From assembly GCA_028717645.1 (NCBI GenBank), contig JAQUNK010000001.1, positions 4,184-68,183 on the forward strand: DNA of 64,000 nt, in the 5' to 3' direction. The position numbers and the translations under genes are program-made. This document shows, piece by piece, positions 18,050-52,806 of the stretch. Position 1 is the stretch's first letter. Each line of letters begins with the position of its first letter. The DNA is from Candidatus Omnitrophota bacterium (GTDB lineage Bacteria > Omnitrophota > Gorgyraeia > Gygaellales > JAMWDD01). The notes beneath the pieces were generated by a model. It saw only the letters and a program-made list of their open reading frames with translations, ran no database searches and was not told the origin of the DNA.

Positions 18050-18673
18050 ATGGACTTATCCCATATTTTTAAATCCAAAACCCGCCAGGCCCTTCTGAAG
18101 CTATATTTCTGTGATTCAGATTCCTCTTACTATCTTCGAGAACTAGAACGTATTTTAGACATCCCGGTAAGCATGATCCATAAAGAGCTCTTAAGGCTAA
18201 AAGAAGAAGGGAGCTTTTTATCCATAAAGAAAGGCAACCGCAGTTATTTTTATATCAATAAATCATACCCGCTTTTCGATGAACTCAAGAATATTGTGCG
18301 TAAAACCATAGGTATCGAAGGGATAATCGAAGATGCCTTAAAAAAGATAGAAGGCATAGAAAGCGCGTATATTTACGGTTCTTTTGTTAAAAACAAAGCA
18401 AACCTGGCAAATGAAATCAACTTATTCATCATCGGCAAGCTTAGGGAGGATGTATTATCAAAAGAATTGGACTGTGTCCGGAAATTTGCAAAAAGAAAGA
18501 TCAGTTATAATCTGTATACCAAAGATGAGTTCAACAGAAAGATAGAGAAAGACTCATCCATACTTAATTTTATTAAAAGTCCCAAAATACCCCTTAAGAA
18601 CGAAAATGGCGCATATTGCGATAATAACGCCGCGAATTTTACTTATAAAAGTTTAAGGGCCGGCCATGTTTAA
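18050..18673 (+). CDS. Winged-helix DNA-binding protein fused to a degenerate nucleotidyltransferase-like domain. Putative locus regulator.
   Basis: The N-terminal wHTH (LRELERILDIPVSMIHKELLRLKEEG) resembles ArsR/MarR-type regulators. The central YGSF-x10-EIN matches the Pol-beta NTase hG[GS] ... DhD pattern, but with the acidic residues replaced. Confidence 0.5.
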   Translation: MDLSHIFKSKTRQALLKLYFCDSDSSYYLRELERILDIPVSMIHKELLRLKEEGSFLSIKKGNRSYFYINKSYPLFDELKNIVRKTIGIEGIIEDALKKIEGIESAYIYGSFVKNKANLANEINLFIIGKLREDVLSKELDCVRKFAKRKISYNLYTKDEFNRKIEKDSSILNFIKSPKIPLKNENGAYCDNNAANFTYKSLRAGHV

Positions 18674-19454
18674 ATTATTTTTAAACCGATTTAAGAAAGT
18701 ATATACATTCCGTCATGCTTTATTGGAAATGACCATAAAGCAGCTGAAGATAAAGTATGCCGGTTCTATGCTGGGGATCTGGTGGGCGGTAATTACACCT
18801 CTTATCCTTACGATGAGCATTTATTTTGTTTTTGAGAAAGTTTTTAAAGTAAATATTCCCCATAATGCATTCTTTATATTGGCGGGCATCATACCCTGGT
18901 TTTTCTTTTCTAATGCTCTTCAGGAAGCCGCAAATTCATTTATTGTCAATACACCTGTATTAAAACAGGGGATATTTCCCAGGGAACTTATCCCGATTTC
19001 AACGGTACTGGCAAATCTGCTGAATTTTCTAATAGGGCTTTGTGCGCTATTACCGTTTTTCATCTTTCTAAATATAAAGTCGTTGAACTCGCTGATCTTG
19101 TTGTTGCCTTTAATAGCATTTAATTTAATATTTATTTTGGGTCTGGGTATATTATTTTCTTGTATCAATATATTTTTTCGTGATTTTTCTCATTTTTTAA
19201 ATATCGCATTCTTGCCCTGGTTCTGGGTCACGCCGATATTCTATTCTCTGGATATGGTCCCTTTAAACCTACAGTGGATATGCAAAGCAAATCCCATGAC
19301 CTACTATATAAGTTCCTATCAAAGCATATTGATAAAAGCAGAAGCCCCGGCATTATTTACGATTTTAGTTTTGATATTTCTTTCCCTGGGTTCTTTTGTT
19401 ATTGGCTACCTATTTTTCATAAAAAATGAAAGCGTATTATTAAAAAGAGCATGA
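18666..19454 (+). CDS. wzm: ABC-2 type polysaccharide export permease (Wzm/TagG/KpsM family)
   Basis: The N-terminal IKQLKIKYAGSMLGIWWAVITPL is the ABC-2 signature. It has 6 TM helices. ATGA overlap with the ATPase gene. Confidence 0.85.
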   Translation: MFKLFLNRFKKVYTFRHALLEMTIKQLKIKYAGSMLGIWWAVITPLILTMSIYFVFEKVFKVNIPHNAFFILAGIIPWFFFSNALQEAANSFIVNTPVLKQGIFPRELIPISTVLANLLNFLIGLCALLPFFIFLNIKSLNSLILLLPLIAFNLIFILGLGILFSCINIFFRDFSHFLNIAFLPWFWVTPIFYSLDMVPLNLQWICKANPMTYYISSYQSILIKAEAPALFTILVLIFLSLGSFVIGYLFFIKNESVLLKRA

Positions 19455-22189
19455 ATACGATAATTGAATTTAATAATGTCTGGGAAAAGTATCGCGTGAA
19501 GTTTGTTAAGGATACGGATGTTTCCTGGGAAGAAGTTTGGGCCTTGCAGGACGTTAATCTTAAGATAGAGAAAGGTAAGATACTTGGGATTATCGGAGAA
19601 AACGGGGCAGGAAAGACGAGCCTTTTAAAATTGATCGCCGGCATGCTTATTCCGGATAAAGGTACCTTAAATATTTCTGGCAGGGTAGCTGCCTTAATGG
19701 AATTAGGCGCTGGTTTTAATCCGGAATTTACCGGTATAGAAAATATCAAGCTGAATGCAAGGATGTATGGCTTAAGCGAGAATGGCCTGGAAGAATGCTT
19801 AAAAAAGATCGTCGAATTCGCCGATATAGGTAAATTCATTTATGCGCCGGTAAAATACTATTCACAGGGTATGTATATGCGCCTGGCTTTTGCTTTAGCC
19901 ATATTTGTCGAGCCGGACATCCTTCTTATAGATGATATACTGGCTGTTGGCGACAAGGAAGCCCAGGCTAAATGCTTGAAAAAGATCAATGAGTTTAAAC
20001 AAATGGGCAGGACCATTATTTTAGTCAGCCATGACATGAATCTAGTGGGTAGTTTTTGCGATCGCGCTGTTCTTTTAAAGCAGGGCAAGGTCATACAGGA
20101 TGGCCCTCCGGAAAAGGCAATTTCTTCTTATATAGAAAGGGAAACAAGCAAAGACGGGCAGGCATTATTAAAAAAAGAAAGATTTAATTTCATATTTAAT
20201 AATGGTTGCATGAATTTGTCTTGCTCGGATATGCTTATAACTAAAGGCAATAACAGCACTTTTTCTTTCTTTGTACCCAAATTTAACTCTTGGTTCTGTT
20301 CTAGCGATCTCTATTGGACAACAGGAACTTCGTCCGACAGCAGTGTTAACGCCGTAGGTCGTTCCCTCGATGGGAATTTTAAACAAGCCTGGAATATCAA
20401 GGCTACAGAGGGAAACATCGTATTTCGAATAGAGACAGAAGGGGAATCAGCAGAAAAATGCTTTAATTTCTTTGTAATACCTATTTATGATAAATGGTTC
20501 ACATTGAATGAAGGAGGGCGCTTTCCTCCGTATATGCATAGGGTCAATTGGCAAGATATAGGCCTAACTAGTTTTCCTGAGAATTTTATAGGGTTGTGTT
20601 CTGCTGCGAAGGAACATGGCTTTCCCGTTATAATCTTTGAAGCAAATGATGAAGAGTCAAAAATACGGCTTTTAAACAGCGGCAGCGAGTTGGAATCAAG
20701 GATCATTCAGGTACAAACCAACAAAAATGCCTTATCGATTGGAACAAAGATCATATTTACGGAAAAAGATTTAGAAGAATATTTAAAAGTAAAAAAAGAT
20801 GCTTTTTTTCTGAAGCAAAAAGCCGAAGAAGAAAAAGCCTTGTTAGAGCAGAATGCTGAAAGAAAAAAATCTATACCCCGAAGAACCGTGTCTTCTGGAA
20901 AATTGAGCGTTTTTGCGGATGCAGAAGGCAGGTTGATCAGGCTTTATCATAACGGTAAAGAAATCACTGGCCCGGGGATGGGTATAAGTACGCCGTTTCC
21001 CATGATTTCATCCCAGTGGGGGATCAAAAAAATATCTGAAGAAGAAATGGTTGTCGAAATTCCCCGCGAAAATATGCTGGAAATATGGTCTTTATCCTGC
21101 AAGCAAGATACCCTCCAGATAAAGGTTGAGCTGGAAATAACAAAACCCATATCTTTGGTCCAAAAATTCATAAGCCTGGAACTAATAGACGAATATGCGA
21201 ATTGGAATACGGCCTATGAATCGGGAGAATTTTTAGTAAATCAATATGTAAATGATATGGGGCCGGTGAGATTAAAAGATGATAGGGTTTCGGAAGTGGC
21301 GGTTAAGCCAAAAAATAATTGCAATTTTACAACCCTGAACTTCGAGGCTGCGGATGACCAGAATAAGAAGATTTTGGGTATTTTTAAAAAAAGGAATTTA
21401 TACGGAGAATCTATTTATCTGACTTTTTCTCAGAATATTCCAGGTAGCGAACATTTTGTTGATCAGGGTAGGCGTCTTTATTTTGAAGGCAGGATTATTT
21501 TCGACAAAAAAGAAATTACGCCTAAAGAAAGGGCAGCCAGTGATGTCGCTGAATTCAGCGGGAAAAAGTTGAAATTAGCATTAGAAAGAGGAATAGGCAG
21601 GATATACTGGCAGGAGAAAGAATTGACTTCCGGATTGGGTATCTTTAGTTCGTTGCGCCATAATGGGATCTGGCATGATTCATCGCGTGCAGAATGGAAA
21701 ATAATTAAAAAAGATAAAGATAGGATTATTGTTTTTGGGGAGTGGATAAATATCCCGATTACGCAAAAATGGGATATAAAGCTAATAGACGATTCTTTGG
21801 TCTCCTGGAATGTAGATGTAGAAACCTTAAAGGAAATCTCTTTGGATATATCACAGGTTAATATTATGCTTTCTTCCGAATTCAGGCATTGGATGGCCCC
21901 CGGATCAAACCAGGGAGACTTTGCCGATGAATACCCCGAGCATTACGATATCCTTCCTTTCAGGTTCTGGTATGGACAAGCAAAAGAGATCGTATCTTTT
22001 GGAGAAAATTTACCCAGGGTTATTTTCAAGAATAATACAGATAGCGATTTTACCCGCGCCATTATAGAAAATAGCGATTATTTATATAAATCCAGATTAA
22101 TACAGTATCAAAAAACAAATAGCAAAAAATCTAATTCCGGGGATCACTATTATTTTAACGGAGCGATAAAAATTGAAAATAGCCCGTAA
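19451..22189 (+). CDS. wzt: Polysaccharide export ABC transporter ATP-binding protein (Wzt/TagH-like) with a roughly 680-aa C-terminal extension containing repeated beta-rich modules
   Basis: Walker A GENGAGKTS, signature YSQGMYMRLAFALA and Walker B LLIDDILAVGD, with Asp where Glu is expected. Two to three internal roughly 100-aa repeats follow the NBD. Confidence 0.85.
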   Translation: MNTIIEFNNVWEKYRVKFVKDTDVSWEEVWALQDVNLKIEKGKILGIIGENGAGKTSLLKLIAGMLIPDKGTLNISGRVAALMELGAGFNPEFTGIENIKLNARMYGLSENGLEECLKKIVEFADIGKFIYAPVKYYSQGMYMRLAFALAIFVEPDILLIDDILAVGDKEAQAKCLKKINEFKQMGRTIILVSHDMNLVGSFCDRAVLLKQGKVIQDGPPEKAISSYIERETSKDGQALLKKERFNFIFNNGCMNLSCSDMLITKGNNSTFSFFVPKFNSWFCSSDLYWTTGTSSDSSVNAVGRSLDGNFKQAWNIKATEGNIVFRIETEGESAEKCFNFFVIPIYDKWFTLNEGGRFPPYMHRVNWQDIGLTSFPENFIGLCSAAKEHGFPVIIFEANDEESKIRLLNSGSELESRIIQVQTNKNALSIGTKIIFTEKDLEEYLKVKKDAFFLKQKAEEEKALLEQNAERKKSIPRRTVSSGKLSVFADAEGRLIRLYHNGKEITGPGMGISTPFPMISSQWGIKKISEEEMVVEIPRENMLEIWSLSCKQDTLQIKVELEITKPISLVQKFISLELIDEYANWNTAYESGEFLVNQYVNDMGPVRLKDDRVSEVAVKPKNNCNFTTLNFEAADDQNKKILGIFKKRNLYGESIYLTFSQNIPGSEHFVDQGRRLYFEGRIIFDKKEITPKERAASDVAEFSGKKLKLALERGIGRIYWQEKELTSGLGIFSSLRHNGIWHDSSRAEWKIIKKDKDRIIVFGEWINIPITQKWDIKLIDDSLVSWNVDVETLKEISLDISQVNIMLSSEFRHWMAPGSNQGDFADEYPEHYDILPFRFWYGQAKEIVSFGENLPRVIFKNNTDSDFTRAIIENSDYLYKSRLIQYQKTNSKKSNSGDHYYFNGAIKIENSP

Positions 22190-24548
22190 TATCCATAAAT
22201 TCATAAAATACACTGGAACCGGTGGTTTATCTTATGCCTTTAGGCGAAGCATCGAGTATTTTATATTTTTGTCAAAAACCAGCTTTAGTCATCCGGGTCA
22301 GCGCATGGCGCAATGCACGGCAATCAGTTATGGCAGGATGAGATTGTCTTTTACAGAAAAATGGACGAATATTTTATGGAATGATCATCAAATAGCGAAA
22401 TTAAATACCAGCATCGAAACGCTGGGCCTCTCGATCGATTCTACTAAGGCCCGCTGGGATATCCTGGAGAAAAGCAGCAATTGCCTTAGATTAAGGTTAT
22501 CTTTCGAAGAGCTACCTCTGGCCCAGGTATGGTCTTTAAAAATAAATAACGAAAAAGAGATCAGTTGGAATATTGATCTAGAACTTTACGATTGGGTAAA
22601 TTTAGATGAATTTAGGGTGTTGCTTTTAACAAATACAAATTGTAAAAGCTGGTTTGTAGGTTTCGAAGAAGGCAATTTTATAAAACCGGATAATAATTGG
22701 CATCAGTTATATTTAAATGACCGTATCTCTGATTTGATAGGTGCCAAATTCACAGAAGGTAGCCCTTTGTCTTCTTTGGCTTTTAAGGTGGAAAATAAAG
22801 AGGCACTGCCTCTTGTGCAGAGTGCGCCGCAAAGTATGCCGGCTAACATTTTGGGTTTTAGGCTAAAGAATTTTATCCAGAACAAAGAATTTACTTCAGA
22901 ACGTTATAATTTATTCTCAGGAAATATACTTTTGTTCCAAGACGACCTCTTTTTAGATAAAAAGATAGAAAAGTCCCGCCAGGCTTATTTTTCTAATAAT
23001 TTCAATAAAATTCAAGCCGCAGAGGAAAAAAGTTTAAAAATAATTTTAACAAACCTTCCTTGGCAGAGGGATTATAAGTGGGGCGTAAGGGCAGGTTCCC
23101 GCTGGCCGCATATCAAAGACGATAGCGAACGGGATTATTTACCTTATCCGTTCTTTCTTGGCTACGCAGCTTCTTTATTAAAAAAGCATAACTTTGATAA
23201 TGTAGAATTGATCGATGCAATAGCCCAGCAACTTAGCGAAGGCGTATTTTTAAACAGGATCTTAGACAAAGATTGTGATTATTTGGTAGCCGAGACATCG
23301 ATACCTTCTTTCTGCGAAGACCTGAAACTATTGGAAAAAATCCATACATCCGGCATAAAAATAATCCTCTGCGGCCCTAATTCAGAGATCTATAAGAAAG
23401 AGTTTTTGGAAAACCATTCATTTATAGACTTTGTTCTGTTCGGCGAATATGAATTTACGCTTTTAGAATTGGTAGAATCATTACAGAAGGGAAAACAATT
23501 ATCCGGGATAAAAGGCCTTATATACAGAGAAGGGAACAATATTGTTAAAAATCCCAGAAGGGAATTGGCAAGTTTGGATCTTCTGCCTTGGCCGGAACGG
23601 GAAGATCTGGGTATGGATAGGTATCTGGATTTACCCGGGGGCATACCTTTTCCTTCCGCCCAAATGATTGCTTCCAGGGGTTGTCCTTTTGGATGCAATT
23701 TTTGCCTTTGGCCGCAGATTATCTATCAGGGTAACCAATATAGGGTAAGGAACATAACAGATGTCGTAGATGAAATGGAGTACCTGCTTGTAAAAAAAGG
23801 GTTTAAATCGGTTTATTTTGATGACGATACATTTAATATCGGCAAAGACAGGATGCTTGGGCTCTGCAGGGAGATCAAAAAGAGAAAACTAGAAAAGTTC
23901 CCCTGGGCAATAATGGCAAGGGCCGATTTAATGGATAAGGATATTTTGGAAGAAATGAAATCTGCAGGCCTGCAGGCCGTTAAATACGGCGTAGAGACGC
24001 ATAACCACAAGTTCATTAAGTACTGCAATAAAGGTCTGGATGTGGATAAGAATACCGAGATGATAAGATTAACAAAACGTTTAGGGATCAAGACGCACCT
24101 TACATTCACTTTTGGATTCCCTGGAGAAACAGAAGAAACGATCATGGATACCATACGTTATGCCTTGAGCCTGGAACCCGATTCGGTACAGTTTTCTATT
24201 CTTACGCCTTTTCCGGGAACAGCATTTTTTGAAGAACTGAAAAGCAAAGACATGATCTTAACAAGCGATTGGTCTAAGTACGACGGCCATGATGGCAGTG
24301 TTTTGAGGCACGATAACCTTACTTCCCGGGATCTGGAAAATGCAAAGAAAAAAGCATATTTATTATGGGCGGAGCAAAAAAGAAGGAAAAGAGGTATCTT
24401 GGGGGACGTGCTGAAGTTCAATGAACATTTAAGCCAATATGGGTTCAGCCGTACCCTCAACAAAACATTAGATTACCTGATATTCACCTTTTTTAAAAAG
24501 AAAAAAATATTGAACAAAGAAGATTTAAAATTAATATCAACCAACTAG
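22173..24548 (+). CDS. Class-B (B12-binding domain) radical SAM protein whose N-terminal domain is homologous to the Wzt C-terminal repeat
   Basis: B12-binding-like Rossmann segment (KIILCGPNSEIY ... LFGEYEF) and the radical SAM cluster motif ASRGCPFGCNFC (C-x3-C-x2-C). The N-terminal roughly 150 aa align with the Wzt repeats. Confidence 0.8.
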   Translation: MKIARNIHKFIKYTGTGGLSYAFRRSIEYFIFLSKTSFSHPGQRMAQCTAISYGRMRLSFTEKWTNILWNDHQIAKLNTSIETLGLSIDSTKARWDILEKSSNCLRLRLSFEELPLAQVWSLKINNEKEISWNIDLELYDWVNLDEFRVLLLTNTNCKSWFVGFEEGNFIKPDNNWHQLYLNDRISDLIGAKFTEGSPLSSLAFKVENKEALPLVQSAPQSMPANILGFRLKNFIQNKEFTSERYNLFSGNILLFQDDLFLDKKIEKSRQAYFSNNFNKIQAAEEKSLKIILTNLPWQRDYKWGVRAGSRWPHIKDDSERDYLPYPFFLGYAASLLKKHNFDNVELIDAIAQQLSEGVFLNRILDKDCDYLVAETSIPSFCEDLKLLEKIHTSGIKIILCGPNSEIYKKEFLENHSFIDFVLFGEYEFTLLELVESLQKGKQLSGIKGLIYREGNNIVKNPRRELASLDLLPWPEREDLGMDRYLDLPGGIPFPSAQMIASRGCPFGCNFCLWPQIIYQGNQYRVRNITDVVDEMEYLLVKKGFKSVYFDDDTFNIGKDRMLGLCREIKKRKLEKFPWAIMARADLMDKDILEEMKSAGLQAVKYGVETHNHKFIKYCNKGLDVDKNTEMIRLTKRLGIKTHLTFTFGFPGETEETIMDTIRYALSLEPDSVQFSILTPFPGTAFFEELKSKDMILTSDWSKYDGHDGSVLRHDNLTSRDLENAKKKAYLLWAEQKRRKRGILGDVLKFNEHLSQYGFSRTLNKTLDYLIFTFFKKKKILNKEDLKLISTN

Positions 24549-24562
24549 CATTTATTTCTGAT

Positions 24563-25813
24563 ATGGGATCTGAAGAAAAAAACATATTTACGAATATTAA
24601 AAAAGCATTACGATACATAAATTCCGGTAATTTATTTAATGATTACTGGGATATTGTAGGTATCTACAATGGCGAGTATGCCTTTACTGGCCCTTCCCAT
24701 GTGCAGATCGATTTGACATACAATTGTAATAATAATTGTATTGCCTGCTGGTGCAACTCTCCGCTTTTGGAAGAAAAAACATTGAGCGAAGCAAGGAGGA
24801 CGCAAACCCTGCCTTTGGGATTAGTCAAGAAATTATTAGACGACCTATCTGGCATGGGCACGCGGGAAATTTATTTTTCAGGCGGTGGCGAACCCTTTAT
24901 CCATCCTGCTATTATAGAAATTTTGGAGTATGCCAAGAAAAAGAAATTCATATGCTATGTAAATACTAATTTTACGTTAATCAATAGAGAGATAGCAAAG
25001 AAGATCATAGATTTAGGCATTGAGCATCTTACTGTAAGCACCTGGGCAGCTAGCCCCGGAACTTATGCCCTTACTCATCCCAATAAGAGTGAAAACACCT
25101 TTTTAGAGATACTGAAAAACTTGAAATATATGAATGAGCTTAAAGCCATTAATCCAAAGATCAAATTATACAATGTTATTTTTAATCTTAATTATCATGA
25201 ATTAAAAGATATGATCAGATTGGCGGGAGAGACTAAATCGGAATATGTAGAATTTACTTTAGTAGATACAATACCGGGTAAGACCGATAAGCTTCTTTTG
25301 GATTACAGGCAGATAAAAGAATTACAGGATATGGCTAATGAGGTTTACCGGGCCATGGATGCCGAAGGAAGCTATGGAGCGGTAAAAATATTGAATTTTG
25401 AATCATTTTTAAGGCGGATTTCTTCCGTCTCTGACCTGGCCAAGGCCACTTATGACCGCAACATCATAGATAGTATGCCTTGCTACATAGGCTGGAATTT
25501 CAGCCGGATCATGCCTAACGGTGATGTGAATGCCTGTTTGAAGGCGCATCGATTTCCCGTAGGGAATCTTTACCAAGAACGCTTTAAAAAAGTTTGGAAC
25601 GGAGAGAGGCAGCGTTATTTTCGTAAGAAAGCATTGGCCTGCGAGAAAAAAGATCCGTTTTTTAAACTTATAGGCAATGACCCTGAAACAAAAGAAGCCG
25701 GCTGTTATAAGAGCTGCGACGACTTATGCAGGAATTTACATATTCATAGCCGGATAAAATTATTAACTAAATTTAAGCAAAAGATCGTTAAGGCATTGTC
25801 CCGCTTAAAATAG
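24563..25813 (+). CDS. Radical SAM protein with a C-terminal SPASM/twitch-type Cys-rich domain
   Basis: Cluster motif YNCNNNCIAC plus a GGGEP-like FSGGGEPF. The C-terminal cysteines (CYIGWN ... NACLKAH ... CEKKD ... GCYKSCDDLC) fit auxiliary Fe-S sites. Confidence 0.75.
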   Translation: MGSEEKNIFTNIKKALRYINSGNLFNDYWDIVGIYNGEYAFTGPSHVQIDLTYNCNNNCIACWCNSPLLEEKTLSEARRTQTLPLGLVKKLLDDLSGMGTREIYFSGGGEPFIHPAIIEILEYAKKKKFICYVNTNFTLINREIAKKIIDLGIEHLTVSTWAASPGTYALTHPNKSENTFLEILKNLKYMNELKAINPKIKLYNVIFNLNYHELKDMIRLAGETKSEYVEFTLVDTIPGKTDKLLLDYRQIKELQDMANEVYRAMDAEGSYGAVKILNFESFLRRISSVSDLAKATYDRNIIDSMPCYIGWNFSRIMPNGDVNACLKAHRFPVGNLYQERFKKVWNGERQRYFRKKALACEKKDPFFKLIGNDPETKEAGCYKSCDDLCRNLHIHSRIKLLTKFKQKIVKALSRLK

Positions 25814-32695: not shown

Positions 32696-34165
32696 TTAAT
32701 CGATATATTGATACAAGTAAAAACTTTCATCTTCCGCGCCGAGCGGATTATTCTTACTTTTATCTGTCTTATATAAAAGCCTAAATTTTTTCCCCTCCGT
32801 AGGATCTAAACCAGTTATCAATAAAAAGATTTTTTTCCCCTTGTTCGGAAACTTTTCCTTAGCCCTGGATATAGTTTCAAAAGCTGATAGGGGATGGGAG
32901 AGGCGATTCTGGAGGGAAAAAATAACATATGTACCAAATTCTTTTTCTCCTGCATACCAGAATTTCGCGTGGGGTAAATATGGCAAAAGCGCTGAGGCGC
33001 TTGGCGAATTTTGCGCGATAATTATACTGTCATCCAAGTCGTTCTTTTGTATGAATTCTGCCATATCTCTGGCTCCGGAAAAACAATATTTATACTCCAG
33101 AAGATATGCCTTTATGGTAAATATCACGGATAGGATCAGGCAGATATTTAAAAAAAACAAGGACAATCTTGTGTAGTCCTTAATAAATAGCGATTTTAGT
33201 AAACGCTTATCTGTTTTTTCTTTTACGTGATTACTGTAATAGGTGGCTATCCATAGTGAAAAAATCAGAATAATAAGCAGGAAACCGGCATGCCATCGTT
33301 CGGCGGAGTGGAAGATGAGAACATAGAATAATCCGGTATACGAGAGAGCCAAAATAGAGAAGGCCATCGCTTCTGTTAGTATTGGCAGGGCCATTATAAT
33401 CAATATGATTGAGGCTAAGGAGATATAAAACAATGATGAGGGGGCGAATGGAATAAATGTTCTTGCTATAGCATAAAATGGCTCTAGGTAATTAGTTTTA
33501 TAGAACAGGTCGAAATTAAATAGATACCAACTATCTTTATAGGGATAAATTTGCAAGATGGCCAATACAGATCCCAAGAGCATGATAAGTATGGATAGGT
33601 AGGTTTTTTTATCGCGCACTGCGTATTTATGGAATTCTAAGATAAAGATAATGATTAAGGCAAATGCGGGAAATATGCTTAAAGCGTTGGTGTTGCTTAA
33701 TAAAAATATCAATAATGAATAAATAATGGGCAGCTTGAATCGTTTAGGATATAAAATGGCGATTAAAAAGAGCAGAAGAATGCTTATGCTATAATTTCTA
33801 GCTATAACCGAATATTCATAAGCCAGGTAATAAGAAAAAATAAATAACAACTTAGTCAGGTTCGGAAAGGGGGCATAGTATAAGAATAGCGTTACGGCAG
33901 CAATGGCGATAAATAGATGGATGATGAATTGTGTTATAAATGGAAGACCGGCCTTAGCAAAAGGCATTATCAGCAGATGCCATAAGGCGGGGGTTGCTTC
34001 GTAGTGCATTGATTTAAACAGAGAAAATAAGTTTGCATCCCTTGCTAAAAGCCATGCCTGGGCTTCGTCTCTCCAGGGTTCATGATGCATAATCGCAAAT
34101 ACATTAATTACTGTATAGACTAAAATTAATAAGGGGATAAGATATATAATAATATTTTTTTTCAT
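32696..34165 (-). CDS. GT-C-fold-like polytopic membrane protein (putative polyprenol-phosphate-sugar-dependent glycosyltransferase)
   Basis: More than 10 TM helices. The first extracytoplasmic loop has EPWRDEAQAW, a DE-containing motif like ArnT/PMT. The start was chosen at MKKNIIIY to abut the downstream gene. Confidence 0.45.
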   Translation of the reverse strand: MKKNIIIYLIPLLILVYTVINVFAIMHHEPWRDEAQAWLLARDANLFSLFKSMHYEATPALWHLLIMPFAKAGLPFITQFIIHLFIAIAAVTLFLYYAPFPNLTKLLFIFSYYLAYEYSVIARNYSISILLLFLIAILYPKRFKLPIIYSLLIFLLSNTNALSIFPAFALIIIFILEFHKYAVRDKKTYLSILIMLLGSVLAILQIYPYKDSWYLFNFDLFYKTNYLEPFYAIARTFIPFAPSSLFYISLASIILIIMALPILTEAMAFSILALSYTGLFYVLIFHSAERWHAGFLLIILIFSLWIATYYSNHVKEKTDKRLLKSLFIKDYTRLSLFFLNICLILSVIFTIKAYLLEYKYCFSGARDMAEFIQKNDLDDSIIIAQNSPSASALLPYLPHAKFWYAGEKEFGTYVIFSLQNRLSHPLSAFETISRAKEKFPNKGKKIFLLITGLDPTEGKKFRLLYKTDKSKNNPLGAEDESFYLYQYID

Positions 34166-35280
34166 TTCGGGCTGATATTGCGTAATAGGGAATTGACTTT
34201 TAGGATCAACGATCTTATCAGTAGCTTCGGCCAATATTTAATATTAAAAATAATATTAACAGTGACAAAGCACTCATGGGTGCAATAGCACTTGTTCTTT
34301 TTTATTAACTGGCGGCTTATTTCAGCTTTCTGCGAAAACCATATTTTTTTAAAATCATAACCAAAATCACGGATATTACCCCAATTTTCTTCTCTTATTT
34401 CGCAGGGATATATCTTCCCATTATGAGATAGGACAAAGGCCAGCTTTCCCGCATAGCACGGTATCTTGTATCTATTATATTTAGCAATCTCATAAATCAT
34501 ATTCCTGCTAATTAGATTCTTGGCATTAATTACTTCAGACAGGAAAAAATGCTGATAACCCGCCATTTTCTTGTTTTTTAGATCATTATCGATAAGTAAA
34601 TTCAATTTCTTAAAATTCTCTATATTCTTTACTTTGGCGTCTTTTGATCGCGGGTTGCCCCTTGTTAAAGTATTAAATATATTTTTGGCTGCGAATATGT
34701 CTTTAATAGCAGGGTATATTTTATCTAATGCATCTTCGTTGTAAGAAGATACATTGATAGTGATATTTACGTTAAAATTATTATATTTTTCCTGTAAATC
34801 CTTTAATCCCTTATATGTTTCCAGGCATTTTGCAAATAGGCCAGGGTGTTTTCTTATTTCATCATGCTTTACACCTATCTGGTCGATTGAAATACTTACG
34901 CCTATATGCATATTGGGGCATCTTTTAGCCATTTCTTCGCTATGCATAATTATTTTGTCTGTTAAGCTGCCATTTGTTGGAATTTGGATCTTGGCCACTT
35001 TATTATTTTTATAATAAATATATGCGATTTCTGCTATGTCATTTCTAAGAAAAGGTTCTCCGCCGGTCAAGAAAACGAATAATAACTTTCCGGCGTGCAG
35101 AGAAAACTTCTCTATCTCATCCAGCGAGAGTTCTGCGTCCTTAGATGCGAAGCGATCGATAAAACAATGGCCGCATTTGCACGTGCACCTGTTGGTAATG
35201 AAATGTATGAGATAAACAGGCATTGTATTATTCTTATTAATAAGCGAGGGCAAAGAATTAAGAAAATTTTTTGGGATCAT
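34162..35280 (-). CDS. Radical SAM protein with a SPASM/twitch domain
   Basis: FITNRCTCKCGHCF (C-x3-C-x2-C) and FLTGGEPF. The C-terminal cysteines are CYAGKLA ... YPCEI ... CYCTHECF. Confidence 0.75.
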   Translation of the reverse strand: MIPKNFLNSLPSLINKNNTMPVYLIHFITNRCTCKCGHCFIDRFASKDAELSLDEIEKFSLHAGKLLFVFLTGGEPFLRNDIAEIAYIYYKNNKVAKIQIPTNGSLTDKIIMHSEEMAKRCPNMHIGVSISIDQIGVKHDEIRKHPGLFAKCLETYKGLKDLQEKYNNFNVNITINVSSYNEDALDKIYPAIKDIFAAKNIFNTLTRGNPRSKDAKVKNIENFKKLNLLIDNDLKNKKMAGYQHFFLSEVINAKNLISRNMIYEIAKYNRYKIPCYAGKLAFVLSHNGKIYPCEIREENWGNIRDFGYDFKKIWFSQKAEISRQLIKKNKCYCTHECFVTVNIIFNIKYWPKLLIRSLILKVNSLLRNISPK

Positions 35281-36290: not shown

Positions 36291-37578
36291 TGATTTTTTC
36301 TGCTACATTTAAGCCATTAATGATTGAATGGTCCATATTGTTATACCAGAATAACCCTGTTCTGCCGGCCATATATAGATTTCTATATGTTTTTAACCTT
36401 GAGTTCGCCTCTGCTAGATTTGTTTCATAATTCAAATAGAGGATGGGATATGCCTCATTAATTTTTTCTATATGAAGCGCCTTTATATGTTTGATTTGAT
36501 TAATAATCCCGAGTTTAAGCATCTCAGTTTTTATTTTTTCAACTAATTGCTCTGGGTTATTCCATACGCTGTCTTTTTCTGGGCAGGTAACTTCAGCGCA
36601 TAAAGCAGTTGTGCCTTTGGGGCTATTATACTTGCTAAACATGGAATAATTGGTTATCCTTACGAATGGGATATCTTTATCGCTAAAGTAGCACCATTGA
36701 TACTTATTCTCTATTTCTGTATCAATTTCAAAATTATATAGGACGGTATTAAGGTAGTCTAACCTAGGCTTAGGCAGATTCAATAGCTTAGATATCGCGT
36801 GGATGGACCCGGTCCAGATAATATCATCGATTTTTTCTTCCTTACCAGAGATGGATATAGACTCGATCTTTTGATCGGCACAGATTATCTTGTCGATTTC
36901 TTTATTAGTGAGTATTTTTCCGCCATATTCTTCGATCGCGGCGGAAATTTTATTAGGAAAAGTATCTATGCCGTTAATCGGATATATGAATTTTATTGTA
37001 TTTTTGCGTAAAAACATCGTATAGATGAGTTCAGATAATGAATTGGTATTTAATTTTTCATCGATCGCCGCTCTCTCTAGGGCTATTTTGGCCCAATATT
37101 TGTGGACTTTCTTGGGGTCTGCTTTAAGGAATTTCAAGGTATAATTCTCGAAGAAACATTTATATAATGTCTTAGTATATCGGTTACTAACGTATTCTTT
37201 AAAGTTATTCGGCTCCATTTTTTTCTGTAGAATTAAGTCTACGCAGGTTTTTATCAAAATATTTACTGGTAATCGAAAGATATCACTAGGGCTTAATGGC
37301 CAATCGAGGTATTTACTAAATAAGTAAATACCGGATTTTCTAGGTATGATTATTTTCTCTTTCAGGATATCATTTATAAAATTTGATACTTGGGGTACTT
37401 TAGTATAGAGTCTGTGCGGCCCTATATCAAAAGTATAACCGTTGTATCTAAAACTTCTCGCCAATCCCCCTGAATTCCCTTCTTTTTCGACAACTAAGAC
37501 TTTGTATCCTGCTTTCGTAAGCTTATACGCCGCTGTCAATCCGCATATCCCGGCTCCAACAACAACTATTTTTTTCAT
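36283..37578 (-). CDS. FAD/NAD(P)-binding flavoenzyme, Glf-like. Paralog 3.
   Basis: MKKIVVVGAGICGLTAAYKL ... EKEGNSGG, with a C-terminal GRTGLFWYNNMDHSIINGL. The ATG directly abuts the upstream stop. Confidence 0.6.
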   Translation of the reverse strand: MKKIVVVGAGICGLTAAYKLTKAGYKVLVVEKEGNSGGLARSFRYNGYTFDIGPHRLYTKVPQVSNFINDILKEKIIIPRKSGIYLFSKYLDWPLSPSDIFRLPVNILIKTCVDLILQKKMEPNNFKEYVSNRYTKTLYKCFFENYTLKFLKADPKKVHKYWAKIALERAAIDEKLNTNSLSELIYTMFLRKNTIKFIYPINGIDTFPNKISAAIEEYGGKILTNKEIDKIICADQKIESISISGKEEKIDDIIWTGSIHAISKLLNLPKPRLDYLNTVLYNFEIDTEIENKYQWCYFSDKDIPFVRITNYSMFSKYNSPKGTTALCAEVTCPEKDSVWNNPEQLVEKIKTEMLKLGIINQIKHIKALHIEKINEAYPILYLNYETNLAEANSRLKTYRNLYMAGRTGLFWYNNMDHSIINGLNVAEKIIG

Positions 37579-39266
37579 TGTTTTGTGCCTATTATAGGTT
37601 TTTTCCAGATAGAACAATAAAAGCCGTTATATATGCTCTGATAGCAGGCATTCTTTATTTCTTCGGGATATTCCCGGGGAGGTATTGTGATGATGTAATC
37701 AGGGTTTTTATTAATTTCTACATAGTTAAGTTTTTTTCCAAAACGTTTGAATAGAATACTAAAAAGCATGTGCGGTTCATAGAATCTATCCGGCTTAGAG
37801 GTCCATTTACAGTTCTTATTAATAGTAAGGGAGCCGTTGTCTTCTATGATGCGAAAGGTAAATGTGGTGGTCTTATTTCCTCTAGGGATATCCCCGGATA
37901 TCATTTTTACAATTTTCATTCTTTCTTCAGATGGCATTAGCGCGTATATTAGTTGCTTTGGATGCTTTATATCTTGTGCTATCGAAACTGTAAATATAGT
38001 ACATACCAGTACCAAGGTTATGCAGCCAACGTATACTGTATTTTGTATAGCAACAAAAATAAGCTTGGTCCTATTATTTAGCCTATTTTTATTTGATACC
38101 AGTAGAAAATATATGCCTATTGAAGTGGCGAAGTTGCATAGCCCGATAAATTGCCCTCCGTAATCAGGCCGTTGGCTGAAAGGGAAAAATCCGATGAACA
38201 AAATTAGAACGTAAGATATATAGCAGGCCCCATAAATTATAGCCACAATAAAAGCAGGTATGAATAAACGCCCTGATTTGGTCTTGGTAAGTGATTGCCT
38301 GAAAGAATAAAACACCGACCAGCTAAATATGGTTAAGGTAAAAACCCATCTTATTGTTGCCAGGATCGTGCTTAAAACGATGGTTAGCAATGAATTGAAG
38401 TTTAGTTCGGAATTTATGTTCTGATCTAATAACTGTAAAATAGTTCCTGCATTTGCAGAAGAAAGCATTTTTCCCCATTCTTTTATTGCTAAAACAAATA
38501 AATTTATGTAGTACCCCAAGGGCCGTAAAGAGATATTTGTCGCTATCAGATTGACGGATTCTTTCCAGTCTTGGGAAGATAATATCCAGGGAAGCCATAT
38601 TTGCAAGAAAGAGGTAGCTGCACCTATTAAAAAAAACATAATATTTTTTAGAGTAATTTTCTTAGTTAGGAATAAGCCAGAGTAAATCAATATTATAAAA
38701 GGTAACCATACCGCCGGTATTGGATGTATACCGGGTAAAAAGAACGTAAGGTATCCGGTCAGGAAGGAACAGAGGAGGCTACGCGAATAAAAGGAAATAA
38801 ATATAAGGGTAAATAATAACACGATCAATGTCCTTGAGATATATTGTTCCCATAGATTTGTACCCGTTAATATCAGAGAGATATCGAAGAGAAGGTATGA
38901 GGCTGCTGCTAAATAAGCTATTTTATTCTTTAGATAGGACGCATCTATTCTTTTCAAAATAGAATTTAAGCAGATTAAGAGAATTATCGCATGGGCACAT
39001 AATAGCACTATTGATAGTGTAACCAAATTTTTAAATAAAACTACAAAGGGCAGGGATAGCCATATCATGCCTGGTGGAAAAAGAAGGCCCAGAGATGACA
39101 CTGTCCCATGGGTAGGAATTTGTGGTTTTAAGATTAGATTATAACTTAATTTATAAATTATGGATTGATCAAGCCCCCAGATAGTAATGGGTGCCGCTAG
39201 CAAGGCCAGAGCGAGAATAGATAGAAGGGGTAAACCATATGGAAAACCCAACTTTTTAATTTCCAC
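37575..39266 (-). CDS. Large polytopic membrane protein with a C-terminal soluble domain (hypothetical; polysaccharide polymerase or GT-C-like)
   Basis: About 13 TM helices with no catalytic motif recognised. It sits within a glycan operon. Confidence 0.4.
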   Translation of the reverse strand: MEIKKLGFPYGLPLLSILALALLAAPITIWGLDQSIIYKLSYNLILKPQIPTHGTVSSLGLLFPPGMIWLSLPFVVLFKNLVTLSIVLLCAHAIILLICLNSILKRIDASYLKNKIAYLAAASYLLFDISLILTGTNLWEQYISRTLIVLLFTLIFISFYSRSLLCSFLTGYLTFFLPGIHPIPAVWLPFIILIYSGLFLTKKITLKNIMFFLIGAATSFLQIWLPWILSSQDWKESVNLIATNISLRPLGYYINLFVLAIKEWGKMLSSANAGTILQLLDQNINSELNFNSLLTIVLSTILATIRWVFTLTIFSWSVFYSFRQSLTKTKSGRLFIPAFIVAIIYGACYISYVLILFIGFFPFSQRPDYGGQFIGLCNFATSIGIYFLLVSNKNRLNNRTKLIFVAIQNTVYVGCITLVLVCTIFTVSIAQDIKHPKQLIYALMPSEERMKIVKMISGDIPRGNKTTTFTFRIIEDNGSLTINKNCKWTSKPDRFYEPHMLFSILFKRFGKKLNYVEINKNPDYIITIPPREYPEEIKNACYQSIYNGFYCSIWKKPIIGTKQ

Positions 39267-50562: not shown

Positions 50563-52173
50563 ATGGCGATAAAAAAAGAAACACTGATAATTATTTTTAT
50601 TATAGCTGCATCGTTAGCGGTAACTTTATTTTGCCAGAAGCAAGGTATTACAAGTAAATACATCATTCATGACGATGTTGTGCAATACGTGCCTCCAATT
50701 TATGCTTTACATAAAGGGGCGCTTAATGACGCACTTTTAGACAATGACCTGATGCTTAAATATATGGTCATTAAAGATTCTCCCGGCCATCTCTATTTAT
50801 ATTACATATTTAGTTTTTTTATTGACCCATTGGCCCTTTCCAAGGTTTTGCCTTTTATACTTGCTCCCCTGGGAGCTGTTTTACTGTTCCTTATCGGTAA
50901 GAAACTAAAAAATACGACCGTAGGGTTCTTTTCATCATTCATATTCTTATTTTATATCTGGACATTATGGTTTGGTGGTTTTCTGGCGGGTGGTTATGCA
51001 AAGGCATTCGCGTTCCCTATTTTCTTCTTTTTCCTTTATTTTTTGTTGTCAAAAAACCAGATCGGATGCCTCGCCGTATTAATAATGCAAATTCTATTTT
51101 ATCCTCCGGTCGCCGTTATTTCGTTAATGATATATCTTTTTGATCTGTTAGAAAAGAAGGGCAATGCCAAAAAAGAGATACTATTTTTTATTATTTCTTC
51201 TTTGGTATGTTTTATTCTTGCATATCTTATCTATAAACGGCCGAATGATTTCCTGGGGCCGGAGGTATCTTTATCCGAGATGCTGAGAATGCCGGAATTC
51301 GGCCCTTTTGGAAGAGACCCGTTATTCGGCTCCGGTATATTGAATTTCCTTAAATCTGAAGATATGAGCTCGATTTTCTTAAGCCCCGTAATGCCTTATT
51401 TATCCGCCTGTTTTTTGATCGCAGCATTTTATTTGGGTAAGAAATTATTCAGGCTCCCGGCTATTATCTTTCATATTTTTATTACAGGTATCATTGCCTT
51501 TCTTTTAGCTTACATTTTTTTATTTTTTCTTTTCTTTCCCGGGCGCTACTTAGAATATACCCTACCCATATTCCTGATACTTGTTAGCGCATTCGCCATA
51601 GAAAAATTAATTGCTTCTACGGATTCAAGGAAAATAAGGGCATTTTTGTATATTTTTTTCATATGTATGATTACATCGCTAAATATTCCGTATTTAAAAG
51701 AAAACGTATTTAACTATAACAGACTTTTCTATAAATTCGTCATGACAACTCCTGAGGATTCCCTTATAGCCGGGCATCCTTATGATATGGACCCGGTAAC
51801 AACTTTTACCAAGCGGAAAGTTCTGGTCCAATTTGAGCTATCAAATGCCTGGTATAAAAATTATTACTCCAAGGTAGAAGAGAGGACCCGCGACCTGTTC
51901 GGGGCGTATTATTCCGATTCTTTAGGGGATATATACAAATTTTTTAAGAAATATAACATAAATTATTTGGTGGTCAATAAAAGTTATTTTAATGCTGAAT
52001 ATCTAAGGAATAAGCAATATTATATCCAGCCGTTCAATGATTACATAGATAAGCTCGTGCGTAAAAATGAAGGGAAATTTGTATTGATGGATAGTAAAAT
52101 AATAAATAAATACAAGGTTTACGAAGACGCCGGTGGGTATTTTATAATTAGTTTCAACAAGGAAAACCTCTAG
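50563..52173 (+). CDS. Polytopic membrane protein with a C-terminal soluble domain (hypothetical)
   Basis: About 12 TM helices. The C-terminal KKYNINYLVVNKSYF motif is shared with 52807..54357. Confidence 0.45.
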   Translation: MAIKKETLIIIFIIAASLAVTLFCQKQGITSKYIIHDDVVQYVPPIYALHKGALNDALLDNDLMLKYMVIKDSPGHLYLYYIFSFFIDPLALSKVLPFILAPLGAVLLFLIGKKLKNTTVGFFSSFIFLFYIWTLWFGGFLAGGYAKAFAFPIFFFFLYFLLSKNQIGCLAVLIMQILFYPPVAVISLMIYLFDLLEKKGNAKKEILFFIISSLVCFILAYLIYKRPNDFLGPEVSLSEMLRMPEFGPFGRDPLFGSGILNFLKSEDMSSIFLSPVMPYLSACFLIAAFYLGKKLFRLPAIIFHIFITGIIAFLLAYIFLFFLFFPGRYLEYTLPIFLILVSAFAIEKLIASTDSRKIRAFLYIFFICMITSLNIPYLKENVFNYNRLFYKFVMTTPEDSLIAGHPYDMDPVTTFTKRKVLVQFELSNAWYKNYYSKVEERTRDLFGAYYSDSLGDIYKFFKKYNINYLVVNKSYFNAEYLRNKQYYIQPFNDYIDKLVRKNEGKFVLMDSKIINKYKVYEDAGGYFIISFNKENL

Positions 52174-52175
52174 AT

Positions 52176-52799
52176 ATGAGCCTTTCTGCGAGATTTTATA
52201 ATTTTATTCGTTCGAGGACCTGTCCTTTTTCTAAGATCGCCGAGTTTGTCCCTGACGGGGGTACTATAGTTGATCTTGGGTGCGGCACAGGTATTTTTAT
52301 CCAGTATTTGAGAACGAATTCTCCACGGCGCTTATTGTACGGATTTGATTGGAACAAGGGAAAAATTGAATTTGCCAGAAACCACTTATCCAGGTTGGAG
52401 GGAATTAAATTCGCAGAAGCAGATATAAGTAGCGATTCTTTCGTCATGCCTGTTGCCGATTGCATAATGCTGATAGATTCATTGTATTATTTAAATGATG
52501 CATTTAAGAAAAAGATATTGAAAAAATGCTTTGATTCTTTAGGGCATGGCGGAACGCTCCTGGTCAAGGATATCAATAAAGATTTCAGCCTAAAATTCAT
52601 ATGGACATTCTTCCAGGACTTTATTTCCTCCAGGGTTTTTAGATTCAATCGTATTGATGGGTTTTATTTCAAATCCAGAATAGAATATCTTAAACTTTTA
52701 AACGAATGCGGATTCAGGGCCGAAGACTTCGATATCAGCAAGGGGTATTTTTATAGCCATATTTTATATGTGGCCAAGAAAAATGTTAAACCGGGTTAA
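52176..52799 (+). CDS. Class I SAM-dependent methyltransferase
   Basis: Motif I is IVDLGCGTGIF. There is a motif-II-like acidic residue after MLIDSLYY. Confidence 0.75.
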   Translation: MSLSARFYNFIRSRTCPFSKIAEFVPDGGTIVDLGCGTGIFIQYLRTNSPRRLLYGFDWNKGKIEFARNHLSRLEGIKFAEADISSDSFVMPVADCIMLIDSLYYLNDAFKKKILKKCFDSLGHGGTLLVKDINKDFSLKFIWTFFQDFISSRVFRFNRIDGFYFKSRIEYLKLLNECGFRAEDFDISKGYFYSHILYVAKKNVKPG

Positions 52800-52806
52800 T
52801 CCATTT

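Follow-up and report, generated by a model that had tools for sequence, protein, structure and literature searches.

The stretch analysed here (the window) comprises 64,000 nt from a Candidatus Omnitrophota bacterium (assembly GCA_028717645.1, contig JAQUNK010000001.1, positions 4,184-68,183, forward strand). It carries a glycan locus in which a PF00005 nucleotide-binding domain (NBD) adjoins a PF01061 permease, the arrangement of Wzm/Wzt (ABC-2, type V) exporters. Glycosyltransferases are encoded downstream, and radical SAM genes number 13 in the locus. The genes and gene parts considered are listed below; module E values were obtained with a family HMM trained on 316 module instances from other proteins and on no window sequence.

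18666..19454, plus strand: Wzm-like ABC-2 permease (PF01061 ABC2_membrane, E 1.5e-16), directly 5' of the ATPase gene, as also in related loci
19451-22189, plus strand: Wzt-like ATPase ORF, 912 aa, with ABC_tran at residues 32-162
19451..20140, plus strand: Wzt/TagH-type NBD, ATPase residues 1-230 (PF00005, E 4e-20)
20135..20854, plus strand: module copy 1 ("first" type), Wzt residues 229-468 (family HMM, E 5e-44)
20849..21514, plus strand: module copy 2 ("middle" type), Wzt residues 467-688 (family HMM, E 2e-33)
21518..22177, plus strand: module copy 3 ("last" type), Wzt residues 690-909 (family HMM, E 8e-69)
22173-24548, plus strand: module-bearing radical SAM (rSAM) ORF, 791 aa, immediately 3' of the Wzt-like ATPase
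22173..22283, plus strand: N-terminal helix pair of the rSAM protein, residues 1-37, from a TTG start; conserved in 65 orthologues
22317..23021, plus strand: module copy of the rSAM protein, residues 49-283 (family HMM, E 1.6e-37)
23040..24548, plus strand: catalytic part of the rSAM protein, residues 290-791, with a Rossmann (B12-binding-like) domain, the radical SAM core and C-terminal helices
24563..25813, plus strand: radical SAM/SPASM protein (PF04055 and PF13186), in some orthologues one polypeptide with the module-rSAM protein

The Wzt-like ORF of 912 aa and the radical SAM ORF of 791 aa were recovered as given in the preliminary description of this DNA. The best matches to the NBD were the TagH and Wzt/RfbE models of NCBIfam, with scores under the equivalog cutoffs, and the TagH/Wzt models cover only residues 7-228 of the 912-aa protein. 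The TTG start of the rSAM gene is preceded by GGAG 9 nt upstream, and in the structure model of its product helices were placed at residues 3-17 and 19-37. The protein thus does not start with the module, as had been stated; the conserved helices of residues 1-37 precede a module that begins at residue 49. Orthologues of 1170-1290 aa contain PF13186 as well, long M-RS ORFs being found in L011-L013 and L015. Transmembrane segments were found neither in the Wzt-like ATPase, including everything after its NBD, nor in the module-rSAM protein, and both proteins are therefore taken to be cytoplasmic.

Three full tandem copies of the module follow the NBD of the ATPase, and one copy lies near the N-terminus of the rSAM protein. 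The unit measures about 215-240 aa, consisting of a domain of about 215 aa and then a helical linker; in the rSAM copy these are a beta-supersandwich at residues 49-255 and a linker helix at 258-279. The repeat of about 95 aa reported before corresponds to the N-terminal, best-conserved 40% or so of this unit. Searching all six frames of the 64 kb window with the family HMM returned exactly four copies, with E values from 2e-33 to 8e-69, so that the segments described as homologous, beta-rich and common to the ATPase and the adjoining rSAM protein are indeed so. Neither the remaining 12 radical SAM proteins of the window nor its PMT_2 protein yielded a further copy in this search. What had been called a possible third copy on Wzt is present, and the wording was too cautious: it is a complete first module.

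The original short segments were also compared by Smith-Waterman alignment against 1000 shuffles. Wzt 715-808 against rSAM 54-152 scored 116 (z = 14.1, reached by 0 of 1000 shuffles), and Wzt 493-580 against Wzt 715-808 gave z = 4.6 (0 of 1000 shuffles). The segment at Wzt 284-350 was weak in its pairings (z 1.9-2.8), as was Wzt 493-580 against rSAM (z 1.3). The expectation that such segments would exceed shuffled controls thus held for the first two of these pairs, while other pairs fell as low as z 1.3. Of the proposed tail motif, LP..Q.W..K; SWN.D.E, Wzt copy 3 and the rSAM module have clear versions and Wzt copy 2 only an approximate one. Taken by themselves, the weak pairs (z 1.3-2.8) would suit a chance or compositional similarity in which there is no genuine shared module. 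The probability of this reading is close to nil: Wzt copy 3, the Wzt type nearest the rSAM module, aligned with the rSAM N-terminus at a Smith-Waterman score of 142 (z = 18), and together with z = 14 for the shorter segments, the E values of the independent profile, the 558 members of the family and the confident common fold predicted for it, this refutes a chance origin.

The module family comprises 558 cluster representatives, 159 of them with E < 1e-30, and its tandem arrays reach 7-8 diverged copies. No consistent Pfam match was found among 46 modules at E <= 1, and PDB sequence searches returned nothing significant, whether the query was the rSAM N-terminus, the Wzt extension or a profile of 46 sequences; a weak WbdD match (E ~1) was discarded as noise. 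With the rSAM N-terminus as sole query, a word-indexed search gave no homologues, and an exhaustive profile search was needed to recover the family. A literature search for a description of the module found none. The module is a domain family previously without annotation, shared by the exporter ATPase and the adjoining rSAM enzyme.

The fold was predicted with high confidence (pLDDT 92.7, pTM 0.88) as a 17-strand, galactose-mutarotase-like beta-supersandwich of the "glycoside hydrolase-type carbohydrate-binding" kind, and the model could be superposed on known members of this superfamily at fold level. Structure prediction thus yielded the beta-sandwich that had been anticipated, and one of a carbohydrate-associated superfamily. 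The fold is overwhelmingly that of carbohydrate-active proteins, and the closest structural neighbours bind sugars; it is also found in YidC P1 and PBCV-1 P19, which are not known as sugar binders. Compared with established galactose-mutarotase-like domains (aldose 1-epimerases, OpgG/OpgD, and the N-terminal or accessory domains of GH15, GH31, GH36, GH38, GH65, GH94 and GH97), the module is only 3-12% identical, has no Pfam or PDB sequence match even by profile, lacks a conserved catalytic His/Glu, and is joined to new partners (an ABC ATPase, radical SAM enzymes, GT-C enzymes). Columns were considered conserved when kept in at least 55% of the 316 modules. These carry W, Y, F, G, P, T, S, N, D, R and Q, and none holds a His or a catalytic Glu. 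Conservation is strongest at aromatic positions (W, Y, F) and at N, D, R and Q, a pattern typical of sugar-binding sites. In rSAM numbering the residues conserved in the family include W95, Q118, W120, Y/C157, W160, F169 and W176, and the Wzt types have N..D..R.LQ.

A catalytic function of the mutarotase/epimerase or glycanase type, as in aldose-1-epimerase, OpgG/D or GH174, is very improbable in view of these features. The family has no conserved His or Glu/Asp catalytic set, the module of about 215 aa is shorter than the 270-384-residue aldose-1-epimerase chains that it matched, up to 7-8 diverged copies stand in one array, and no Aldose_epim (PF01263) match was obtained in 46 members. The module was likewise rejected as a trimmed mutarotase because the catalytic residues are not conserved.

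The preliminary description had related the module to the C-terminal carbohydrate-binding domains (CBDs) of characterised Wzt proteins. The position is the same: as with the Wzt-C CBD (PF14524) of E. coli O9a, R. terrigena and A. aeolicus, an all-beta array follows directly on a Wzt NBD (residues 1-230, the first module beginning at residue 229), with Wzm encoded directly upstream. Recognition of the polymer before export would be the presumed common role. Kinship was not borne out. The whole 912-aa protein gave no match to PF14524 at E <= 0.1, and the Wzt CBD is a jelly roll dimerised by exchange of its C-terminal strands (PMC9445017), whereas the module is a supersandwich of about 215 aa and 17 strands. 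It further differs in occurring as 1-7 tandem diverged copies rather than one, and in being present on biosynthetic enzymes as well.

Partners of the module in other genomes, mostly Omnitrophota, are Wzt ATPases (1-7 copies), either end of the module-rSAM family, SPASM radical SAM proteins and GT-C glycosyltransferases; a stand-alone module ORF also occurs between wzt and the rSAM gene. Among the 150 best family matches, 88 consist of an NBD with 2-7 modules, 10 of PMT_2/GT-C with 2-4 modules, three of modules with rSAM/SPASM, and one of B12-rSAM, module, SPASM and module in that order. The rSAM family of the window was located at 83 loci, fused to modules in 45 and accompanied by an adjoining stand-alone module ORF in 13. 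Where fused or adjacent loci had enough upstream sequence, Wzt with modules was found upstream in 29 of 40, and no Wzt was present in the fetched flank of the remaining 11. The order Wzm, Wzt with modules, module with rSAM is conserved across Omnitrophota. The recurrence of both the fusion and the gene order in many genomes gives good grounds for linking the exporter and the enzyme functionally.

The four copies in the window belong to paralogue types that are defined by position (first, middle, last and rSAM-type) and that separated long ago. Wzt copy 1 has its orthologues in the first modules of Wzt proteins elsewhere, and copy 2 most resembles the middle modules found in other genomes. For the rSAM module, similarity to the Wzt modules of its own genome is no greater than to those of other genomes, and a search for within-genome co-evolution or gene conversion between rSAM and Wzt modules revealed no excess over between-genome similarity. 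The first and last types keep the conserved N/D/R/Q positions of the family, and the middle Wzt type and the rSAM type do not. One genome has a Wzt with the first type only, and its rSAM protein still bears a module. The proposal that Wzt and the enzyme bind the same glycan terminus is weakened, since the paralogue types are old and differ in the polar residues that they conserve; the types probably read different polymer features rather than one identical terminus. The rSAM module of the window is the most deviant of 65 orthologues, departing at 11 of 33 conserved module positions (median 1.5), and its catalytic domain is typical among them. To judge from these substitutions, the binding function of this particular copy may be altered or weakened.

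An alternative reading is a protein-protein docking scaffold, in which modules bind one another or the NBD and recruit enzymes to the Wzt array without contacting glycan. Stand-alone module ORFs and the variable position of fusion are in keeping with it, and distinct, positionally conserved types suggest specific pairings. Polar positions that Wzt types 1 and 3 conserve are missing from the rSAM type, whose own positions are nonetheless each conserved across genomes with differing glycan loci. Canonical Wzt CBDs are, moreover, themselves dimerisation domains (PMC9445017). Docking is nevertheless judged unlikely: the fold comes overwhelmingly from carbohydrate-active proteins, 11 of 40 fused or adjacent loci show no Wzt nearby, and the same module is carried by GT-C enzymes, where modules, if extracytoplasmic, could not meet a cytoplasmic Wzt array. 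The GT-C fusions have 10-12 helices of ambiguous parity by hydropathy of single sequences and of the alignment. In all GT-C structures known to us, large C-terminal domains are extracytoplasmic.

Conservation of each module type despite variable polysaccharide loci is easier to reconcile with an invariant ligand than with a repeat unit that varies. Such a ligand could be the undecaprenyl-(pyro)phosphate carrier, a primer sugar or the membrane surface, in which case enzymes and exporter would be located at the lipid-linked end and not at the non-reducing terminus of the polymer. Lipid-linked substrates would be common to Wzt, the GT-C proteins and these rSAM enzymes, and the YidC P1 domain, which has the same fold by structural match, has been proposed to bind hydrophobic ligands. 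Against this, the module itself has no hydrophobic or amphipathic signature, a single lipid head group would hardly call for as many as 7-8 tandem copies, and the nearest structural neighbours are sugar-binding. A non-glycan ligand is accordingly held to be improbable.

The catalytic part of the rSAM protein matched PF04055 (E 3e-23), and the cysteines of the CxxxCxxC cluster motif (C504, C508, C511) are invariant in 65 orthologues. The Pfam B12-binding model (PF02310) reached 17.6 bits, under its cutoff of 32.1 bits. Residues ~290-716 matched the NCBIfam models of HpnJ (2e-70), BchE (1e-51) and AprD4 (1e-28), all with scores far under the equivalog cutoffs (for HpnJ, TIGR03471, 238 bits against 577.6). 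Among solved structures, the nearest is that of AprD4 with its sugar substrate bound (TMt 0.81). AprD4 is a sugar diol-dehydratase whose B12-like domain is not known to hold cobalamin. The likeness to the HpnJ/BchE/AprD4 branch, with its B12-binding-like Rossmann domain, is confined to the catalytic part; alignments with solved structures of this type span that part, and the supersandwich module and terminal helices are unmatched. To our knowledge none of HpnJ, BchE and AprD4 is a methylase. This resemblance, with the sub-cutoff score of the B12-binding model, weakens the radical methylation suggested earlier, and we infer sugar-directed radical chemistry of the HpnJ/BchE/AprD4 kind, not necessarily methylation. 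In the full-length model a low-confidence linker joins module and catalytic domain (pTM 0.66), which fits a tethered module.

On balance we lean, with modest confidence, towards a non-catalytic glycan-binding module, functionally a carbohydrate-binding module (CBM), that ties exporter and rSAM enzyme to one polymer. The shared domain probably tethers both to the same sugar polymer pathway. The tandem array of Wzt would replace the canonical jelly-roll CBD, capture the undecaprenyl-linked polymer on the cytoplasmic face and pass it to the Wzm channel. The flexibly tethered copy of the rSAM protein would keep the enzyme on the same nascent polymer, and tailoring and export could thereby work on one substrate pool. 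There is established precedent both for tandem CBMs that raise avidity and for CBMs borne by GT-C enzymes, EmbC among them. The arabinosyltransferases EmbA/B/C and AftD, in which GT-C is combined with sugar-binding beta-sandwich modules, parallel the PMT_2-module proteins of the family; Emb modules belong to fold families other than the supersandwich. The module-rSAM gene also holds a position relative to wzt equal to that of WbdD, the chain terminator of E. coli O9a, which is encoded next to wzm-wzt and acts on the polymer that Wzm and Wzt export. In WbdD a kinase/SAM-methyltransferase is combined with a coiled-coil ruler, and none of its domains is present in Wzt, whereas the enzyme of the window belongs to the radical SAM proteins and has one domain in common with the exporter.

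A more speculative extension, to which we give little credence, is that the Wzt array is a multi-site "checklist" reader. Each type would recognise a different radical-SAM-installed modification, the rSAM- and GT-C-borne copies would order tailoring by the same code, and export would be licensed only by the full set. If so, the 13 radical SAM genes of the locus would make the modifications that are read, and the system would be a new, fold-unrelated and more elaborate form of cap-gated O-antigen export, with a direct link to radical chemistry on the glycan.

What textbooks teach of cap-gated export by Wzm/Wzt derives from reader domains of one structural type only, known from work on a few proteobacteria and Aquifex. 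The module would add a second, structurally unrelated reader-like domain, in tandem arrays of diverged copies, from a family of 558 cluster representatives entirely missed by current annotation. Its presence on tailoring enzymes, with conserved gene order, offers a testable handle on the coupling of modification to export. The surface-glycan loci of Omnitrophota contain many radical SAM genes that lack an explanation, and one enzyme among them is singled out here as tied to the exporter, physically or functionally.

Four copies of one beta-rich module were identified, three in the Wzt-like ATPase and one in the radical SAM protein (rSAM) encoded directly downstream of it.

18666-19454, Wzm-like permease
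19451-22189, + strand, Wzt-like ATPase, 912 aa
22173-24548, + strand, rSAM, 791 aa

The window belongs to a metagenome-assembled genome of Candidatus Omnitrophota, and an exact match to the 912-aa protein was found on contig JAQTNT010000001.1 of GCA_028713695.1. Residues 32-162 of Wzt correspond to ABC_tran and residues 7-228 are matched by TagH/Wzt-type NCBIfam models, while the ~680 residues after the nucleotide-binding domain (NBD) gave no Pfam match. rSAM comprises ~290 N-terminal residues without Pfam match, a weak B12-binding-like match and the radical SAM core. GGAG lies 9 nt upstream of its TTG start codon, which is the correct one, as residues 1-37 are conserved across 65 orthologues. 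No transmembrane segments were found in either protein.

The preliminary description had proposed units of ~95 aa, two clear ones in Wzt (493-580 and 715-808), a possible third (284-350), and one in rSAM. Compared by Smith-Waterman alignment with 1000 shuffles, Wzt 715-808 and rSAM 54-152 lay far above the shuffled controls (z = 14.1), the two clear Wzt copies gave z = 4.6 against each other, and pairs involving the possible third gave 1.9-2.8. Longer segments aligned in register over ~200 residues, with z = 18 (score 142) for Wzt 691-912 against rSAM 1-300, 7.7 for Wzt 471-690 against 691-912, and 5.2 for Wzt 231-470 against 471-690. The module unit is therefore ~215-240 aa, and the 95-aa stretches correspond to the N-terminal region of each unit, where conservation is highest. 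An independent HMM, built from 316 module instances from other proteins with the window sequence excluded, was run on all six frames of the window and matched exactly four times:

Wzt copy 1, residues 229-468, E 5e-44
Wzt copy 2, residues 467-688, E 2e-33
Wzt copy 3, residues 690-909, E 8e-69
rSAM module, residues 49-283, E 1.6e-37

The suspected third Wzt copy is thus a full one, giving three in total, and the homology between Wzt and rSAM holds along these boundaries. Beside such E values, chance similarity is a practically negligible explanation. The same scan found no module in the other 12 radical SAM proteins of the window or in its PMT_2 protein.

The module was modeled with AlphaFold2 (rSAM residues 41-300, 46-sequence alignment; pLDDT 92.7, pTM 0.88), yielding 17 beta-strands and, after them, a helix of ~35 residues. 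Structural neighbours of the model, with scores, were:

galactosaminidase 9awt, 17.4
aldose-1-epimerases, 15-17
supersandwich domains of GH38/GH97/GH15/GH94/GH2 enzymes, 13-16.5
OpgG/OpgD, 13.8-14.5
YidC periplasmic P1 domain, 13.4-13.8
PBCV-1 minor capsid protein, 13.6

Foldseek was in agreement, and the predicted structure establishes the fold class. A catalytic role of the module is very unlikely. The full-length rSAM model (pLDDT 87.4) had a pTM of only 0.66 and low-confidence linkers at residues 36-46 and 277-284, so in this prediction the module seems to sit on a tether and not to pack onto the active site.

Among solved structures, AprD4 (TMt 0.81), a radical SAM 1,2-diol dehydratase solved with its substrate paromamine, came closest to the catalytic part of rSAM; next were TsrM, OxsB, CysS, MgmA and TokK. 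The best NCBIfam models, HpnJ and BchE, were both far below cutoff, and PF02310 (residues ~329-433, 23040-23500) reached 17.6 bits against a 32.1-bit cutoff. With this weak B12-binding match and AprD4 as nearest structure, cobalamin dependence should not be assumed. To our knowledge none of HpnJ, BchE and AprD4 is a methylase; for this reason, and given the sub-threshold B12-binding match, the radical methylation suggested earlier is one option among several. The N-terminal (residues 1-37, 22173-22283) and C-terminal helices (residues 718-791, 24324-24545) of rSAM have a common motif (GGLSYAFRRSIEYFIF and YGFSRTLNKTLDYLIFTFF, respectively). Both are amphipathic and basic, the former being conserved in the 65 orthologues, and they may serve in membrane or partner docking.

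When 1.84 billion cluster representatives were searched with a profile built from the four window copies, 558 proteins matched at E <= 1e-3, of which 159 reached E <= 1e-30; in most of them 2-8 stretches matched. Two very long members (2244 and 1881 aa) had eight stretches apiece, the shorter one without NBD or any Pfam domain. Pfam gave no consistent match in 46 diverse modules at E <= 1, no PDB sequence matched the profile at E <= 10, and rSAM orthologues are named merely "radical SAM protein" at source; present annotation does not capture the family. No description of the module was found in the searchable literature.

Among the 150 best family members, 88 had a Wzt-type NBD followed by 2-7 modules (most commonly three), ten a PMT_2/GT-C membrane glycosyltransferase followed by 2-4, three had 2-3 modules ahead of a radical SAM/SPASM enzyme, and one the order B12-rSAM, module, SPASM-rSAM, module. 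The full-length layout of the window enzyme, which joins a module to the catalytic part in ~780-800 aa, recurred in >100 clusters at 45-55% identity, and all full-length orthologue clusters bearing a name were Omnitrophota. Orthologues of 1170-1290 aa carry a fused SPASM radical SAM part resembling the neighbour at 24563-25813. All three long contigs had the order Wzm, Wzt with modules, module-rSAM, more rSAMs; their Wzt proteins were of 1146, 459 and 686 aa with 4, 1 and 2 modules, respectively.

Gene order was surveyed at 83 loci (80 from species-representative genomes plus the three long contigs). rSAM was fused to modules in 45, N-terminally (one or two) or C-terminally (one or two, two being present at seven loci), a stand-alone module ORF adjoined it in 13, and neither applied in 25, of which 19 also lacked a module-bearing Wzt in the upstream sequence fetched. 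A module-bearing Wzt lay upstream in 29 of the 40 fused or adjacent loci with enough upstream sequence. One or two small separate module ORFs stood between wzt and rSAM at eight loci. Such a mixture of fused, split and neighbouring genes speaks strongly for joint action of module, Wzm/Wzt exporter and rSAM enzyme. As to what the module does, the main rival of carbohydrate binding is a protein-protein docking scaffold, though an unlikely one. Among the loci without a module were eleven with a close homologue of the catalytic core (48-56% identity) in Woesearchaeota and Nanoarchaeota (DPANN archaea), Aminicenantes and Patescibacteria, which suggests that the enzyme has spread laterally over a wide range and that modules were gained mainly in Omnitrophota.

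Judged by sequence, the copies diverged long ago as paralogues and are orthologous by position. Wzt copies 1, 2 and 3 had their best matches (100-200 bits) in the first, middle and last modules, respectively, of other genomes, and the Wzt of one genome had a first-type module only. rSAM modules formed one cluster (126-236 bits), had the last type as their closest relative among the Wzt modules (~50-60 bits), and were no closer to the Wzt modules of their own genome than to those of others. Conserved positions across the family were aromatic residues (W, Y, F), T, S, Q and an N..D..R.LQ motif. Its N, R and Q are kept in Wzt copies 1 and 3, with D kept also in copy 3; these positions are not kept in copy 2 or the rSAM-type module, and rSAM orthologues conserve QN.P...NAH instead. 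That the module recognises an invariant ligand other than a glycan, for example the undecaprenyl-pyrophosphate end, is less probable still than a scaffold. At positions conserved in >= 85% of the 65 orthologues, the window rSAM module (22317-23021) was the most deviant (11 of 33, median 1.5; including W87S and Y157C), while its catalytic domain was ordinary (5 of 184, median 5); in this genome, selection on the module may be relaxed or altered.

At ~18 kb, exactly at the start of a large surface-glycan locus, GC content falls from 0.43-0.47 to 0.34-0.40, and it remains low up to ~54 kb, a sign that this surface-polysaccharide region may be variable or of horizontal origin. Besides the Wzm-like permease and the Wzt-like ATPase, the locus holds GT4 and GT2 glycosyltransferases, a PMT_2 protein, sugar-nucleotide enzymes, one class I SAM methyltransferase (52176-52799) and 13 radical SAM genes packed into ~40 kb (22173-61330). 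By Pfam, eight of the 13 have a B12-binding match (the 22173 gene only below threshold), four are of SPASM type and one is neither; only the wzt-adjacent one carries the module. Five ORFs of the locus (311-563 aa) had no Pfam match at E <= 1e-3:

32696-34234, - strand
37575-39266, - strand
50563-52173, + strand
52768-54357, + strand
62502-63437, + strand

The earlier proposals, that every copy reads one and the same glycan terminus and that methylation by rSAM sets the export signal, are weakened by the divergence of the paralogues and by the affinities to HpnJ, BchE and AprD4. A polymer-reading domain on Wzt is already known as a concept. What appears new is this family and fold in that role, the tandem arrays of diverged copies, the module's presence on radical SAM and GT-C enzymes too, and the conserved wzt-rSAM linkage. 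On balance we slightly favour a carbohydrate-binding module acting as a CBM-like tether: on Wzt a multivalent array would replace the canonical CBD, and on rSAM, SPASM and GT-C enzymes the module would keep each on the same lipid-linked polymer.
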